Of a DNA stretch of 18,320 bases, positions 714-18,320 are shown one piece after another. This DNA comes from a virus (taxonomy: Duplodnaviria; Heunggongvirae; Uroviricota; Caudoviricetes). A model generated the notes under the pieces. That model ran no database searches. It saw nothing but the letters and a program-made list of their open reading frames with translations, and was not told the DNA's origin. The stretch lies in the IMG/VR virus record IMGVR_UViG_2728369556_000002. One strand, written 5' to 3'. The position numbers and the translations under genes are program-made. Each line of letters begins with the position of its first letter. Position 1 is the first letter of the stretch.

Positions 714-3700
714 CCCGACGCGATGACTGCATAATTGACACAACCCTGCTGTCGATCAGATCCACCAGTCCCCTGGCTGAGCGCGCATCTATCTCGCCAT
801 TGCTCCCTTGATTCTGAATGCTGATGTGATACACGGGAGAATAAACAAATCCACCGCCACCATTCACATCTCCAATGGCCCTGACCCCAAGAGAGCCGTC
901 CGCTGCCCGTGTCAGTGGCATGATTGCTTCAGGCCCGGCCTCGCCCATCAACCCGGCCCCCTTCGCAAAAGCAAAATACGTCGGTGTATCCACAATAGTG
1001 TTACTGTAAGCACTCAGATTTGCCGATGTGTAAACACCACCTTTTGCGTTTGCCACTGCCCCCGAAATCCATCCGCCGACCGTACCAAGCCACCCTCCGG
1101 CACCGGAGAGTGATTTCAGTCCGTTAACAATGGCTGCATTCATCAGAATTTTTGAAACTTCCCGGAGAACTGAACTCCCCCAGTTCCTCCAGTCCACAAC
1201 ATTTCCGGCCAGTGCATCGGAAATATTTGATACCAGCCCGTCCATAGTGGAAACGACAGCATCTGCCGCCTGCGAAGCATAATCGGTGGCACTGTCTGCC
1301 CAGTTGGTCAGCCCCTCCTGGAGTCCTGCATTCCAGTTATTACGTAAAGCATCGGCCTTTGCATAATAATCCTGCTGATCGCTGAGACGCTCTTCCAGAT
1401 ATTTTTTATTCAGTTCTTTCTCCTGTTTCCACAGGGCTTCTTCAATTTCTCCGGCCTGATACTGTCTCAGCAGCTCGTTATTTTTCTGCTCAAACTCATG
1501 CCGGATACTCCACATTTCCTGGAGTCGTTCACGCATCCGTGAGCCTTCACCATATCCCAGTAACTGCGCGTCGTTAGACGCCCGGGTACTGGCATTACTG
1601 TCCGCCAGGCTGCTTTCATACGCAGCAAGCTGCTCACGAATCTTTTTCTGGTCGATGAGTGCTGCATTCTGCAAAAGCGTTTTTTTCTGCGCTTCTGACA
1701 GGGTTGATAATTCGCCCTGACTGACCTGATATTTCATCTTAGCCAGTTCAGTATTCTGCCCTGCCAGTGCTATCTGTTCTTTTTGCTGTTTAATCAGCCG
1801 TTTATAAATATCTTCTGTTTTTTCCGCTTCGGTCTTTTTATGCGCTTTGGGTTTATTTGCCTGGTTATTTCGCCAGGCATCCAGTGAGTTATTGATATAA
1901 TTCTGTCTGGCTGTCTGATACGCCTCTCCCACAAAGCCAAGATCATCCGCAGCATAGCCCAGTCGAGCACGCTCACGCGCTTCCCCCTTAAGGCGGGACA
2001 GAGCCAGTTCGCGCTTGCTGTTATTCAGTGCGGTCTGCTGTTTATCATCCAGGGTTGCCTGTGGTAGCCGTAACGGTACATTCACCAACCCCTGTCGCTG
2101 CTGAAGTAATTCATTACCAAGCCCAAGAAGGCGATTAAACTCGGTATGCTGCCCATTCATGATCAACAGGGACTGATACGCTTTGTTTTGTTCCGCCGCC
2201 TGTTGACGGATCAACGCAACCCGCCGCTCCTCCAGCCCGGCAAGCACATCCTGAATGGATTGCGCTTTGCCCTGCATTTGTGTGAGACGGGACTGTTCAA
2301 CTGCCAGTTGATTTGTTGCTTCTGCAAGCCCTTCTGTGACTGTTTTTACCGACGTCATGTGGTTAATCATAAAACCGTTATCGGTTGTCCAGCCCGGGTT
2401 TGCCAGCACATACTGATAGCCAGCAATTTTTTCCTGTAAGGATTTAATCTTACTTTTCTGCTCGTCAATTAACCTGTTTTGCTCATCAAGTGCCTGCCGC
2501 GTCTTTTCCTCATTATCTGACGCTTCAGGAAGCGACATTGCCGACGTTTTCTGGCGAATTTCGTCGATTGTTGCGGCATACTGGCGTGCAGATTCTCTGG
2601 CCTGCTCCTGATTCTGATACATCGTGTACCAGGCCGTCGCCCCCAGCATGACGAGTCCCGGCACACCACCAACCAGCCCCAGCGCACCACTTAACAGACG
2701 ACTCCCCACTGACGTGACAGTATTCAGCGTTGTCTGCGCCGCTGTTCTGGCCGCAATATTACGGGTAAGTGACGCCTGAGCAGCTGTCAGCTTCGCTTCT
2801 GCTGCGGCCTGCCTTTCGGTACCGCGAGCAGCAACAACCGCCTGTTGCGCACGATAAACCGCCGCACGCGCTCTGGCGGTTGCTATCTGTGTCCCCCGAA
2901 GTTGCGCTTCAGCAAGAGCCACTTCGTTTCTGGCTGCAGTAATTAATCCGGCAGTTGCAGATCCAGCAGACGACGCCATATTGCCAAAATATCGGGCTAC
3001 CCCGACGGCAACCAGTGCGCCAGCTGCAGCAGCCACGGTATCAATATTGTCTGCAACACCATTCAGCACACCGGAGAGTGTCTTTGTCACTCCGCTTGCC
3101 TCGTTCGCACCACCAACCCAGGCCATAAAGGCGTTTTCAACTTTGGTTGCAGAGGATGAAACAGTATCAGGCATTGCTGCATATTCATCACGCAACGCCC
3201 CAAGCTGACTAATCAGTGCAGGAACAACCTTATCGGCGGTCAGTTTTCCGTTATCCGCCATGGCCTTCAGATCCTTACGGGCAACCCCCATTCCCGCAGC
3301 CAGCGCACGAATAACACGATCGCCGTTCTCATTCACCGAGTTAAACTCTTCACCGCGCAGCACTCCCTGCGCCAGTGCCTGACTGAACTGCATGATCACC
3401 GAACTGGCTTCTGCTGTACTGGCACCGGATAATTTCAGGCCCGTGGAGATCGCCTCGGTGACTTTCAGTACCTCCTCAGAACTGTAACCATACTCCCGCA
3501 TGGAAGCTGCAGAACGGGCAAAAAGGCTGGCGTTATCAGAAAACGCCGTCCCCGTTCTCTGGCTGATCGCCATTAATTCACGCTGTGATGCCTGAAAATC
3601 ATCACTGGACTGTGAGGCCTGCTTCAGACGGGCATTTACTGAATTCCACTCATCGGCGAGAGAAATAAGATGACCGGTAGCAAAAGCCCCGGCAAATGCC

Positions 3701-8177: not shown

Positions 8178-8724
8178 TTATGCATTAAGAAGGGTCAAAA
8201 GGCGCTCACGCGCCATTCGTTCATTAACAGCTTTCTTCAGCGCACCACTCGCCCGCGCTTCCTGCCAGGCTTTCATTGAGCGGACACCGGAGTCTGCGTC
8301 CTGATAGGCCGGATATGTCACCGGGCTGACGTCATACAGACGAGAAATGCGCGTGATTTCCCGGATAACAATCCCCTCGTCGTCTTCATACCAGCTCTCT
8401 CCGTCACGGGCGACACGAAACGCGAACGAGGACTGGTTAATGTCACCACGCAACATTGGAGACAGCACCAGGTCACAAATAGTCGGAGTATCCGGTGCAA
8501 CAATGTCATAACGTAAACCGCGTTCATCCACCGACAATGACAATGTGCCGGCAGAACTTCGTCCGAGAATGAAATTAGGATCATGATTAAACAAGCCACG
8601 TACATCATCATTCAGTACATCATCAAAAGCCCCCGGCTTGATGATTTCACGAAATCCCCACAGAGGTTCTGAACGACTGTTAAATACCGAGCCATACCCC
8701 AGAATGTGGGTCGGGCATTATCAT
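8178..8724 (-). CDS. prohead protease (HK97 / S78 family) with an apparent frame break at the 5' end
   Basis: The protease frame is open from 8717 to 8178 (...ILGYGSVFNSRSEPLWGFREIIKPGAFDD...NHD...) but has no ATG, GTG or TTG before the TTG at 8594. The only ATGs with a ribosome-binding site (8724 and 8718) are in the +1 frame and stop after 14 codons. Confidence 0.75.
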
Positions 8725-8768
8725 ATTGTTCCGCCCGCACCTCCCCGCTGTAACAGCGCGTTTCACGG

Positions 8769-9995
8769 TCATTCATCGTTCTTTTCCTCTTTGCCTTTCG
8801 TATCTTTAAAGTTATTCAACGGATTTGCTGCATTTACGCTGACCAGCATTTCATCCAGACCGTCAACCGGGTTCATATCCTCAAATGCCCTGGCTTCATT
8901 CCGACTCATCCAGCCATCTGTAATGGCAAAGTGATAGAACTGCGCACGCTCCTGTGGGGTCCCACGGAGCAACCCCGTGAGGTTAAAACGAACGTAATAC
9001 CCGGCAGCCCGTTCTGTACGGGTAAACAGGCGACGGTTAAGCTCCTGCTCCCAGTTCGCAACCCAGGGCATCATCGTGTAGCGAACAAACTGAATCGCCT
9101 GCTGCGTAATATTCGAAAATGTGGCTTTTTCCAGGTCATTAATCATGTGCGCCGGGACATTAAAAATCCCTGCAATCATCGACCTGTTCAGCTTGGTCAT
9201 ATCAATGATCTGAGCATCCACCGGAGAAACTGTCAGAGCGCGGTAATCCAGTTGCGCAGGCAACAGCATGGTTTTATTTTCCTGGCTGCGAAGCGCTGTC
9301 ACCGCCCGCTGCCACATATTTTTAAGCCTGCCCCAGCTCTGTTCGTTCAGTTCATTTTTCACAGAAATAATACCGGCAGGACGGGCATTACCGTTAAAAA
9401 AGGCGCTGGTATACTGCTGGCCACTCATTCCCATACCAATGGTTTCAGCATGCTGCATGATCGGGCTCAGTCCCATTTTCTGATTGTTTCCCAGCGCCCT
9501 GATATGGATCATGTCGTCCGGACTTACCGCAAATGCACCCTCTTCGTTATACACCCCGTAAGTATGACGCCCACCGGTGTTAAGTAACGTGGTTTCCCAT
9601 GGCATACAGCATTCAAGGCTGGTAACCTCTCCACGACGATTACGTTTTACCCACGTATAACCATTGCCCCACCCCAGCACATGACGCTGCTTCAGTTCCC
9701 GCCACTTATAGCTGGTCTGCCAGGCATTAGGTTCATCATGAACGAGCCAGAACAACGGATGATCGCGTGCAGGCTGAACATGCTCATTCGTTTTTCGCAT
9801 CACATGCAGGGGCATCTGAGCCACACTGGATGAAATAACATAAATACAGGCATAGACAGCAGCCAGCTTCATGGATGTTTCCGGACTGACATACACATCC
9901 CGGGCAAAAATATTATCCGTCTCAGCGGCCTCTCCGGTTACCGGAACCGAGGGATTTTCCAGAGACTCACTGCGAAACAGAGCATCAAGAAGCAT
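8769..9995 (-). CDS. portal protein, HK97 family
   Basis: 408-aa ORF with AGGAGA ribosome-binding site, directly downstream of large terminase. Confidence 0.92.
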   Translation of the reverse strand: MLLDALFRSESLENPSVPVTGEAAETDNIFARDVYVSPETSMKLAAVYACIYVISSSVAQMPLHVMRKTNEHVQPARDHPLFWLVHDEPNAWQTSYKWRELKQRHVLGWGNGYTWVKRNRRGEVTSLECCMPWETTLLNTGGRHTYGVYNEEGAFAVSPDDMIHIRALGNNQKMGLSPIMQHAETIGMGMSGQQYTSAFFNGNARPAGIISVKNELNEQSWGRLKNMWQRAVTALRSQENKTMLLPAQLDYRALTVSPVDAQIIDMTKLNRSMIAGIFNVPAHMINDLEKATFSNITQQAIQFVRYTMMPWVANWEQELNRRLFTRTERAAGYYVRFNLTGLLRGTPQERAQFYHFAITDGWMSRNEARAFEDMNPVDGLDEMLVSVNAANPLNNFKDTKGKEEKNDE

Positions 9996-13403: not shown

Positions 13404-13697
13404 ATGAAAAAAATGTTGTTTTCTGCCGCTCTGGCAATGCTTATTACAGGATGTGCTCAACAGACGTTTACTGTTGGAAACAAACCGACAGCAGTAACAC
13501 CAAAGGAAACCATCACCCATCATTTCTTCGTTTCGGGAATTGGACAGGAGAAAACTGTTGATGCAGCCAAAATTTGTGGCGGCGCAGAAAATGTTGTTAA
13601 AACAGAAACCCAGCAAACATTCGTAAATGGATTTCTCGGTTTTATTACTTTAGGCATTTATACTCCACTGGAAGCGCGTGTGTATTGCTCACAATAA
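13404..13697 (+). CDS. bor: Bor outer-membrane lipoprotein (serum-resistance, Iss-like)
   Basis: MKKMLFSAALAMLITGCAQQTFTV... has a lipobox and is nearly collinear with lambda Bor as I recall it. On the opposite strand to the late genes, as in lambda. Confidence 0.92.
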   Translation: MKKMLFSAALAMLITGCAQQTFTVGNKPTAVTPKETITHHFFVSGIGQEKTVDAAKICGGAENVVKTETQQTFVNGFLGFITLGIYTPLEARVYCSQ

Positions 13698-16110: not shown

Positions 16111-16446
16111 ATGAAGTGGATTGTAATTGATACAGTTATCCAGCCATCATGCGGAATATCTTTTTCAGTCATATGGAGTAAAGTAAAATTAATAATCTGG
16201 TATCAATCGGATGCTTTCTTACCTCCTGAAAGTATATTTACACTGACTCACACAGGTATCATGCTCAATAACAAAGTGCTACCTGTAACCATTTACAACG
16301 TAGTACCATTCAATAAAACATTCTGGAATTTAATCAAAAACAGCCAGGAATGCCCTACAAATACAGATAACGTATTGAATGAATGCTTTAATAACCGTTG
16401 CATTCTGCAAATATGTCCTTATGGACTAAAACAACAAAGTCCATAA
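16111..16446 (+). CDS. orphan low-GC protein of unknown function (111 aa)
   Basis: An uninterrupted 111-codon ORF in markedly AT-rich DNA, with AAGGAAG 6 nt upstream of the ATG. On the opposite strand to the late operon. No family recognised. Confidence 0.45.
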
Positions 16447-16466: not shown

Positions 16467-16640
16467 AAAATCAATATAAACAGCCCCTCCGGAGAGGGGC
16501 TGGAGAGTGGCGCTATGTGCCATTGCATGGTGCCGGGTGCCTCCCGGTGAATTCAGTACCAGCACCTGAATCCGCGATTATCCCATATACCTACTCGCTG
16601 ATTACCCCTCCGCACAGGGGGATTCACCATGCGAAATTTT
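16467..16640 (-). ncRNA. candidate structured small RNA, copy A
   Basis: Minus strand shows promoter-like boxes (TTGTCT, 18 nt, TGTTAAAAA), a 5' arm GCATGGTG, internal hairpins, a 3' arm CACCATGC, then terminator AGCCCCTC-TCCG-GAGGGGCT with a U-rich tail. Paralogous to copy B. Confidence 0.3.
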
Positions 16641-16935
16641 TTAACAAACTTCCCGCCGGCCAGACAATAATCGCCAGCCTGAATTATGAGCAACGTGGCA
16701 TTTTACGGGAAAACTGTTTTCTGCAGTAAAAAGGCCCGCCGGAGCGAGCCTGGAAGGATAGCGGTCATGTGATGCCGGTTTCCCGGTAACTCAGCATCGG
16801 TATCTGAGTCAACGTTTTCTCTACTGGGTCATTTCCGATACGTTCCGCCTTCCGGCAGACTTTCATCACGTCAGAAAATATAGCACCCTGAGTAACAGGA
16901 CAGTACTCAGAATTCAGGAAACTGTGACACATCCT

Positions 16936-17110
16936 GCACAGAAAAGCCCCTCCGGAGAGGGGCTGAAGTATAGCCTAATTTCTGTCTGTCGCATGGTGCC
17001 AGGGGCCTCCCGGTAAATTCAGCCTGTCTACTGAATTTGCATGTTCTCTGGATCATACACTTTGCCAGATGCCCCGCCGCTGAGGGGGATTCACCATGCG
17101 ATGTAATTTT
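16936..17110 (-). ncRNA. candidate structured small RNA, copy B
   Basis: Same block architecture as copy A, with identical terminator hairpin and promoter-like boxes but divergent loops and linkers. Confidence 0.3.
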
Positions 17111-17302
17111 TAACAAATTCTCCGGCAGCCAGACAATCATCAAGCTGTGGAATTGTGAGGTATTTAAAAATTTCAACGGGTAACTGATACCCTGCTAATC
17201 GCCTGATGCTTTCTTTTTCAGCAACGGGAAAGCAACAACCACACACCCGCCACCAAAACACCATCAGACAGCACCGACATTATCCGGCTGCTGAAGTCCA
17301 CC

Positions 17303-17378
17303 ATCACCACCAGAAACAACAGGAGTGCAACCACAGCTGCTTAGAAGGCAATTGCTCTGCCCGGCTGAGCTAACAACG
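17303..17378 (-). pseudogene. degenerate tRNA-Arg(UCU)-like remnant
   Basis: Minus strand reads GCGTTGT TAGCTCAGCCGGGCAGAGCA ATTGC CTTCTAA GCAGC...: a tRNA-like 5' acceptor strand, D-arm and an anticodon loop with TCT, but the anticodon stem and T-arm do not pair. Confidence 0.25.
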
Positions 17379-17479
17379 CTGAATACCGATAATGGACCGC
17401 CATCGGGGACCCGCCCCCGCACCAACAACCCTGTTATCGTGTCGTCTGCTCTTCCTGATAAGCTAATGGCGGTTTGTGA

Positions 17480-17555
17480 TGGTGGCCCTTGCTGGATTTG
17501 AACCAGCGACCTGGCGATTATGAGTCGCTCGCTCTCACCACTGAGCTAAAGGGCC
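17480..17555 (-). tRNA. tRNA with anticodon CAU, closest to tRNA-Ile2 (lysidine type); tRNA-Met not excluded
   Basis: 76-nt minus-strand sequence folds by hand into a cloverleaf: 7-bp acceptor stem GGCCCTT/AAGGGCC, D-arm GCTC..GAGC, anticodon loop CTCATAA, T-arm GCTGG TTCAAAT CCAGC, encoded 3' CCA. Closely resembles E. coli ileX as I recall it. Confidence 0.88.
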
Positions 17556-17591
17556 GGGAGTAGAATAATAACGGTCCGTAATTAATTCCGC

Positions 17592-17620
17592 AATAAAAAA
17601 CCCGCTCGGCGGCGGGTTGT
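17592..17620 (-). terminator. tR'-like intrinsic terminator of the short late leader
   Basis: Minus strand reads AACCCGC CGCCGA GCGGGTT followed by TTTTATTG, about 60 nt downstream of the putative late promoter. Confidence 0.6.
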
Positions 17621-17659: not shown

Positions 17660-17698
17660 ATGACGAATTTACCACAGATTCCGGAAAAATCAACCTTG
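17660..17698 (-). promoter_or_regulatory. late promoter pR'-like with probable Q-utilisation region
   Basis: Immediately after the Q stop, minus strand has TTGATT (-35), a 16-nt spacer, TAAATT (-10), then a second -10-like CATAAT in the initial transcribed region, as in lambdoid pause-dependent Q loading sites. Confidence 0.5.
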
Positions 17699-18247
17699 TT
17701 ACCTAGTTACCTTTTTTAACTGCCGCTCAGCCCATGCTTCTTCAATATCAAACCGGGTCACCAGCGCATCATAGAATTTCTTAACTGTTTTTTCCCATGA
17801 CGCGCGTGTTATCTGGTTTGTCACCTCGCATATAGCATTAAATGTCTCCGTTGATGGTAGTCTTTCATAGCCACGACCACCACAACGCTGGCAGTCTCTG
17901 ATAACAGGCATACCACGTTTTACCGACTCTTCACGATGAATGGCGACACCACGCCCACGGCAATCCTTACAGGCGGTGGAAACCTCACCCTTTCCGCCAC
18001 ACTCCGGACAGGCAACTTTTACCACCTCCCTGACTTTTTTCCATTCTTCCCAGTAAGACGAATACACACCTTTCGTACACTTTGCCCATACCGGCGGCTT
18101 ACCATCCGGATACTGGACCTTGTTTGTAAAAACTACGCTTTCAATAAATTTTTCCCCATAGCAACAAGGGCACTGCTTTTTACTCGCTGCGCTGCGGGCA
18201 TAATCCTCAAAAGCGTACGAATGCGTATTTTCATGAAAGGAGATCAC
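17699..18247 (-). CDS. Q: late antiterminator Q (lambda Q family)
   Basis: C-terminal half aligns by eye with lambda Q (YA.DY.RSAA...C..C.G.G...C..C.G.GY...P...W...VK..YDALV...VTR). Apparent GTG start at 18247, preceded by GGAAG. Confidence 0.85.
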   Translation of the reverse strand: MISFHENTHSYAFEDYARSAASKKQCPCCYGEKFIESVVFTNKVQYPDGKPPVWAKCTKGVYSSYWEEWKKVREVVKVACPECGGKGEVSTACKDCRGRGVAIHREESVKRGMPVIRDCQRCGGRGYERLPSTETFNAICEVTNQITRASWEKTVKKFYDALVTRFDIEEAWAERQLKKVTR

Positions 18248-18320
18248 TCAATAACTTCCATCGAGATCGGGTAATAACATTTGAACAGATCGCTGAATAA
18301 CATCGATGGAGATCACTTTT

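Follow-up and report, generated by a model that had tools for sequence, protein, structure and literature searches.

Probable remains of an ileZ-argN-argO tRNA cassette in a defective lambdoid prophage of Escherichia coli

Results

The analysed stretch of DNA, hereafter the window, is 18,320 nt long and is nearly identical to a prophage of Escherichia coli M217 (99.99% identity over 18,219 nt). According to its PGAP annotation the M217 prophage is lambdoid, with an HK97-like head and a P27-type terminase. The gene order on the minus strand is Q antiterminator, tRNA-Ile, DUF3927 CDS, lysis genes and head and tail genes, with the tRNA cassette located between the Q antiterminator and the downstream cargo. 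All features of the tRNA island lie on the minus strand, and "downstream" refers to lower coordinates throughout. The names ileZ, argN, argO, tciA and tciB follow GenBank annotations; the literature searched for ileZ/argN/argO, tciA/tciB and DUF3927 gave nothing relevant. Several weak Rfam matches in the region, i.e., Plastid-ycf2 antisense to the tRNA, Trp_leader on the terminator, YrlA, isrK and snoRNAs, were far under their gathering scores and were discarded.

An earlier note on this DNA had described a CAU-anticodon tRNA with a complete cloverleaf and an encoded CCA end, and had proposed an ARAGORN run as a check. This run gave a single tRNA in the whole window, at 17480-17555 on the minus strand, with the anticodon CAT. 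The same gene was matched at full length by the Rfam model RF00005 (72.5 bits versus a gathering score of 29, E=1.8e-14), and its canonical cloverleaf contains only one non-canonical pair (27:43) and is followed by an encoded ACCA end. Base for base it equals the annotated ileZ of Stx2a_1447 (100%), and it is one base off the ileZ of phiP27. Identical copies were found in more than 2,700 E. coli records, and every copy was labelled tRNA-Ile by PGAP, which assigns the tRNA type by isotype-specific models. ARAGORN itself reported the gene as tRNA-Met, from the anticodon alone, and tRNA-Met is also the label in several GenBank phage records. A methionine tRNA, either elongator or initiator, is nevertheless very improbable, since it agrees at 70 of 76 positions (92%) with the tRNA-Ile(CAU) on the chromosome of a K-12 derivative, with no difference in the acceptor stem, where C4:G69 and C5:G68 are present, in the D stem or in the anticodon loop CUCAUAA; the uniform PGAP label and the name ileZ in the phiP27 and Stx2a_1447 records point the same way. 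Judged by its sequence, the gene is of the tRNA-Ile2 type and the label "Met" is a naive reading of CAU. Labels of this style on prophage CAU tRNAs are wrong, and the proper name is ileZ (tRNA-Ile2).

TilS converts C34 of the CAU-bearing tRNA-Ile2 to lysidine, whereby the tRNA reads AUA; C4:G69, C5:G68 and the loop CUCAUAA are reportedly its determinants. The CAU anticodon of ileZ is expected to be lysidinylated by TilS in the same manner, and so to decode the rare codon AUA. The acceptor stem, the D stem, the anticodon loop and the discriminator-CCA end are the same in ileZ and in the chromosomal tRNA-Ile2 genes ileX and ileY. Six positions are substituted in ileZ, which leaves its anticodon stem with an A27:C43 mismatch at the top, and unlike ileX and ileY it is prophage-borne, with up to ~12 extra copies per genome.

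Most of the gap between ileZ and the argO half described below is filled by a second dead tRNA, which the earlier note had overlooked. This is an 80-nt pseudogene of the middle-slot gene argN (Arg-UCG) at 17393-17472 on the minus strand, here termed Psi-argN. The acceptor and D arms are common with argN, whereas the anticodon arm is a different one, extended by 4 nt, and the T loop, GCGGGT, has degenerated. It was called as a tRNA neither by ARAGORN nor by Rfam (E<=10), nor by PGAP in any genome. Psi-argN was present in 1,782 of 5,426 complete E. coli genomes, i.e., a third, and also in phiP27 and mEp460. Its variants across genomes include a run of 4-12 G in the former T arm, a change of U8 to G and an uncompensated change in the acceptor stem. 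The G-run, found in records L013-L018 at the equivalent of window positions ~17414-17424, is a slippage-prone homopolymer. As far as can be read from these variants, the pattern is one of neutral decay in which structure is not preserved. A functional tRNA of unusual form was considered and rejected, as no caller finds it and the variation breaks the structure.

The middle-slot tRNAs (531-606 in L011, 2626-2702 in L003 and 17393-17472 in the window) share a scaffold of acceptor, D and T arms with varying anticodon arms. The variants, namely Arg-UCG (argN), Lys-UUU (PPompW_EH2201), a form reported to be Pro (TL-2011c) and the dead one, suggest that the anticodon arm has been switched within one phage tRNA lineage.

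The 5' half of argO, nt 1-42 of a tRNA-Arg(UCU), lies at 17338-17379 on the minus strand. A tRNA-Arg(UCU)-like remnant about 100 nt downstream of the CAU tRNA had been noticed earlier and taken for a pseudogene, and both points hold: the spacing is right (17480 to 17379), and the gene stops at nt 42. The features quoted for it were all found, namely the acceptor strand GCGTTGT, the D arm TAGCTCAG..GAGCA and the loop CTTCTAA. Alignment to Arg tRNA genes, which had been proposed with this observation, gave 41 of 42 positions identical to the intact argO of phiP27, Stx2a_1447, mEp460 and E. coli MCJCHV-1, well beyond chance, the sole mismatch being A-to-G in the D loop. BLAST alignments that contain the argO half had E-values from 9e-78 to 0. 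A permissive Rfam scan gave a partial match on the minus strand at 17336-17370 (13.9 bits, model positions 10-42), covering the D arm and the anticodon arm. The homology to argO ends abruptly at 17338, within the 3' strand of the anticodon stem, and the acceptor 3' strand, the T arm and a full anticodon stem, all of which belong to a functional tRNA-Arg(UCU), are lacking.

From 17337 onwards the sequence is homologous to tciB, a DUF3927 gene, starting at codon 8 and with 90-96% identity. The junction at 17337|17338 is blunt; the two sides have 0 nt of microhomology, with no base shared, and no repeat was found there. Relatives without the junction carry the order ileZ-argN-argO-tciA-tciB (MCJCHV-1) or ileZ-PsiargN-argO-tciA-tciB (O145:H28 RM13514), where tciA belongs to the TerB family (PF05099). 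To both of them the window aligns up to 17338 and resumes at 17337. The breakpoints are 2346|3001 in the MCJCHV-1 locus (L007), with 654 bp missing, and 1635|2289 in RM13514, with 653 bp missing, and the comparison with mEp460 gave the same breakpoints. The segment lost from the window, ~654 bp, held the 3' half of argO, a spacer, the whole of tciA and the first seven codons of tciB.

The earlier note had described the remnant as having lost pairing in the anticodon stem and T arm. Pairing is indeed lacking 3' of 17338, and the Rfam match covers model positions 10-42 only, as would be the case if the Arg(UCU) copy had decayed in place through accumulated point mutations. However, identity is 41/42 up to 17338 and then ceases at once, which is a junction and not a gradient of decay, and what follows is not a worn tRNA but tciB from codon 8 at 90-96% identity with a Pfam DUF3927 match. 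The cause is thus truncation, and the two-sided alignments to MCJCHV-1 and RM13514 refute decay in place, to which we give practically no credence.

A site-specific process, i.e., integrase/att recombination, a homing nuclease or an insertion splitting the gene, was also considered because the break is located in the anticodon stem; integrases classically target tRNA genes in the anticodon loop or the T loop. This reading too is very unlikely. The 3' half of argO was absent across the window in a search allowing up to 3 mismatches, so the gene was not split by an insertion. Integration normally leaves a 3' tRNA fragment and not a 5' half, the junction is without microhomology or repeat, and the right-hand partner is a truncated gene as well. 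Among the 60 of 910 phage-collection records listed, argO was cut at nt 42 in window-type records only. Fragments of tRNA genes at att sites are likewise partial tRNA genes inside prophage DNA, but they are 3' portions, duplicated on integration and placed at the edge of the element with a direct repeat, whereas the window retains the 5' half of argO, deep within the prophage, joined to a truncated CDS and without a repeat.

The alignments indicate that argO was cut by a deletion or by illegitimate recombination, and neither by insertion nor by gradual decay. When a synthetic pre-deletion ancestor was compared with all complete E. coli genomes, no undeleted relative was more than 99% identical on both sides, the best reaching 95.1%. 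The lack of a close undeleted relative leaves room for illegitimate recombination between two phages instead of an intramolecular deletion, and the event may have been of that kind; mEp460 is 99% identical to the left of the break, where its argO is intact, and has different DNA to the right. The argO|tciB junction was found in 325 of 5,426 complete E. coli genomes, a count that says little on selection as these may largely be a few expanded clones. In the mEp460 record (L004, mEp460_ev081, 2919-3417), unrelated DNA of ~500 bp takes the place of tciA after the intact argO, and the DUF3927 gene past that DNA has a different N-terminus and a Pfam score of 95.6 bits, above that of the tciB type. 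The mEp460 arrangement is another sign which suggests that the interval between argO and the DUF3927 gene is a recombination-prone cargo slot.

The possibility that the argO half, Psi-argN or both are kept as functional RNAs, for example as decoys for anticodon nucleases, as regulators of the tRNA-half type or as processing signals in the late transcript, was weighed against the same data. The D arm and anticodon loop are intact in the argO half, and Psi-argN occurs in a third of the E. coli genomes, a spread which is, however, explained by hitch-hiking with ileZ and argO. Moreover, Psi-argN varies through slippage at a homopolymer, a lost U8 and stem changes without compensation, the argO half already has a substitution in the D loop, and it is without the acceptor 3' strand and the T arm, which tRNA-processing enzymes need. 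We regard a retained function as highly improbable.

The tciB remnant occupies 17218-17337 on the minus strand. It begins at codon 8, and a 1-nt deletion frameshifts its C-terminus. Pfam DUF3927 matched the remnant with 42.6 bits at profile positions 11-39 of 53, in comparison with 71.7 bits for a full-length homolog of 54 aa. Upstream the frame is closed by the TAA of the argO anticodon loop (17343-17341). PGAP calls a CDS of 38 aa here, 17334 to 17218, which is most likely a pseudogene. The corresponding RefSeq protein WP_000226111.1 ("DUF3927 family protein", 38 aa) represents a 5'-truncated and 3'-frameshifted gene fragment and is probably an annotation artefact spread over several hundred genomes.

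Upstream of the cassette, the window contains the 3' fragment of a Q antiterminator gene at 17699-18221 on the minus strand, a pseudogene coding for the C-terminal ~174 of 273 aa. The family was identified through an intact homolog, which matched Pfam PF03589 (Antiterm) with 1.2e-54. At 18221|18222 its reading frame is interrupted, a stop codon occurs in frame upstream, and the copy in E. coli AR_0162 was annotated by PGAP as "missing N-terminus". The remaining 99 nt of the window, 18222-18320, are unrelated to the Q gene of M217 and constitute the end of the IS21-family element ISEc12, inserted in Q. This end is multicopy, and many copies on chromosomes and plasmids interrupt unrelated genes; in AR_0162 PGAP placed istA and istB of ISEc12 between two Q fragments. 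The Q::ISEc12 junction was found in 8 of 5,426 complete E. coli genomes, AR_0162 being one of them.

A putative pR' was recognized by eye at 17666-17693 on the minus strand, with a -35 box TTGATT (17693-17688) and, after a spacer of 16 nt, a TG-extended -10 box TAAATT (17671-17666; TTGATT-16-TGgTAAATT). It agrees with the consensus at 8 of 12 positions, which is under the threshold of the promoter scan, and was not listed there. The block 17694-17593 tracks the same Q family, with 88% identity in the MCJCHV-1 locus. The terminator scan found a tR'-like intrinsic terminator at 17589-17618, also on the minus strand, whose stem (17618-17599) has seven pairs, five of them G-C, and a 6-nt loop and is followed by the T-rich tail TTTTATTGCG. 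The tRNA had been placed in the earlier note just after a tR'-like terminator, in a position to be over-expressed upon antitermination by Q. The terminator is present upstream of ileZ as described; an intact Q gene directly upstream, as in lambda-type late control, is not, and since Q is split by ISEc12 the prophage cannot supply its own Q for over-expression of ileZ.

A candidate promoter for ileZ overlaps the end of tR'. It lies at 17565-17593 on the minus strand, with a -35 box TTGCGG (17593-17588), a spacer of 17 nt and a -10 box TATTAT (17570-17565), and ends 9 nt before the 5' end of the tRNA (9-10 nt across contexts). When sequences were anchored on the 5' end of ileZ, the motif TTG(C/A)nn-17 nt-TATTAT recurred in 9 distinct upstream sequences, which represent at least 4 genomic contexts, i.e., after the Q/tR' block, after a DNA methyltransferase gene, after a gene for an HTH protein and after a different Q type, even where spacer and flanks had diverged. 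In the window TTGnnn-17-TATTAT occurs once, versus 0.12 occurrences expected, and the homology to the cassettes of Stx phages starts ~2 nt upstream of the candidate -35 box, at 17595. This suggests a dedicated sigma-70 promoter that would travel with the cassette and act independently of Q. On the other hand, ileZ might have no promoter of its own and be expressed only by Q-dependent read-through from pR', and it would then be essentially silent in the window. The tRNA starts 44 nt past the tR' stem, and the candidate, at 8 of 12 consensus positions, is absent from the list of the consensus scan. Expression by read-through alone is nevertheless rather doubtful, since the motif is fixed relative to ileZ also where no Q, pR' or tR' is immediately upstream, in contexts whose flanks and spacer have diverged, and is unique in the window.

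Codon usage was compared between 20 late-gene CDS (4,418 codons) and 38 host core CDS (11,854 codons), a comparison of rare codons that the earlier note had suggested. All three rare codons were enriched in the late genes. AUA occurred 7.0 times per 1000 codons in late genes against 3.3 in the host (2x, p 0.003), AGA 6.3 against 1.3 (5x, p 2e-7) and AGG 5.4 against 0.6 (9x, p 8e-9). As AGA and AGG were the most enriched and AUA the least, the tRNA that was lost, argO, served the most enriched codons, while the one that was kept, ileZ, serves the least enriched.

Discussion

The features described above are best read as the remains of an ileZ-argN-argO cassette of lambdoid (Stx-type) phages inside a defective E. 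coli prophage, a reading to which we assign a probability of roughly 0.85. With Stx2 phages and phiP27 the region shares 87-92% identity over 258 nt, and with mEp460 99%; the order of slots, ileZ, middle tRNA, argO, is kept, and a Q gene lies upstream. Not all members are intact, as ileZ alone was called as a tRNA whereas the middle slot and argO were not. The locus is thus an already known kind of phage cargo, caught while decaying, with nothing beyond that kind, and the remnants are unannotated scars.

The tRNA set between q and the cargo varies by Stx phage lineage, with Met (corresponding to Ile2)/Arg/Arg, Met/Arg (Stx2e), Met/Pro/Arg and Thr/Gly (PMC7366253), and variable tRNA sets at this site were also reported in PMC4631060. 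Both the presence of an ileZ-argN-argO-type island after Q and the turnover of cargo at this site, which the earlier note had proposed, are borne out by these sets together with the homology, slot order and upstream Q found here. In 933W-type Stx2 phages (Stx2a_1447, AP012536) the slot order and the position after Q and before variable cargo are the same, ileZ is 100% identical and the leader is common with that of the window, in the form TTGCAG-17-TATTAT. The window differs from the Stx2 cluster in that argN is a pseudogene, argO is truncated and a tciB remnant takes the place of stx2 as cargo. The MCJCHV-1 locus contains ~1.5 kb between tR' and the tRNAs, with a 65-aa hypothetical ORF and a DNA methyltransferase gene, which is absent in the window. 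Another relative is phiP27 (NC_003356), which has ileZ and argO with the same Psi-argN between them, including the identical odd anticodon-arm sequence, at 92% over 258 nt. This phiP27-type variant is common in E. coli (the 1,782 genomes above). In phiP27 an intact argO is followed by stx2e, whereas in the window the argO 3' half has been lost and the T loop of Psi-argN is more degraded. On these comparisons the window would be a one-tRNA derivative of the phiP27-type two-tRNA variant.

The frequencies of the three lesions are nested, Psi-argN being found in 1,782, the argO|tciB junction in 325 and Q::ISEc12 in 8 genomes, and AR_0162 has all three. We propose that argN degenerated first, in a widespread ancestor, into a pseudogene which is no longer recognisable as a tRNA. 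Subsequently a single deletion of ~654 bp, illegitimate and blunt, would have cut argO, a tRNA-Arg(UCU) reading AGA and AGG, after nt 42 and taken along the TerB-family gene tciA and the first seven codons of tciB. The splitting of Q by ISEc12 would be the most recent event. Both Arg remnants would be inert scars. The series from Psi-argN over the argO-tciA-tciB deletion to Q::ISEc12 is clean and datable, and its steps could serve as lineage markers. For annotation, several hundred RefSeq genomes are concerned, in which the two unannotated tRNA pseudogenes and the mis-called CDS of 38 aa are to be regarded as deletion scars.

Decay was also seen elsewhere in the same prophage, as a frameshifted prohead protease gene, a partial DUF1737 gene and a frameshift in terS. 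The protease gene (~8178-8776, minus strand) is a pseudogene according to PGAP in the M217 copy as well. Compared with M217 the window has one C fewer at ~12031, which leaves terS with 140 aa and an altered C-terminus, and one C fewer at ~12478, in an intergenic position. The losses of C in the window and the frameshift in the protease gene could be real decay or homopolymer sequencing errors.

As to expression, ileZ probably has a sigma-70 promoter of its own, overlapping the end of tR', from which it is transcribed; where a relative possesses an intact Q, read-through from pR' may be a second route. The mature tRNA would then be freed by RNase P and 3' trimming, giving the cell one more copy of an AUA-decoding gene. 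The conserved promoter-like motif suggests that ileZ is expressed independently of induction, and this may add to the AUA-decoding capacity of the host. One could go further and regard ileZ as a domesticated, self-contained cassette with a constitutive sigma-70 promoter, kept by host selection as an extra AUA decoder while its surroundings, i.e., the two Arg tRNAs, tciA/tciB, Q, the prohead protease and terS, decay. Such domestication is unlikely in our estimate, yet it would account for the persistence of an identical ileZ in thousands of prophages, dead ones included.

The loss of argO fits poorly with the idea that phage tRNAs match the codon demand of the phage, given the enrichment of AGA and AGG in the late genes. 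It agrees better with selection having been relaxed in a defective element than with a fine-tuned supply, and the best explanation is that the prophage is defective or that the host genes argU and argW suffice. In lambdoid phages with two or three tRNA genes, codon adaptation was found to be neither better nor worse than in those without (PMC4631060).

Some further features of the window were recorded. The stretch from the tciB remnant to the lysis genes, which would be the leader of the late operon, holds two full-length copies of the Rfam sRNA STnc100, at 16936-17129 (138 bits) and 16472-16660 (132.5 bits), both on the minus strand, i.e., in the orientation of late transcription, and each ending in an intrinsic terminator. 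Two morons lie inside the late region on the opposite strand: an IraM-like anti-adapter gene (RpoS stabiliser) at 16111-16446(+) and an iss/bor serum-survival lipoprotein gene at 13404-13697(+).
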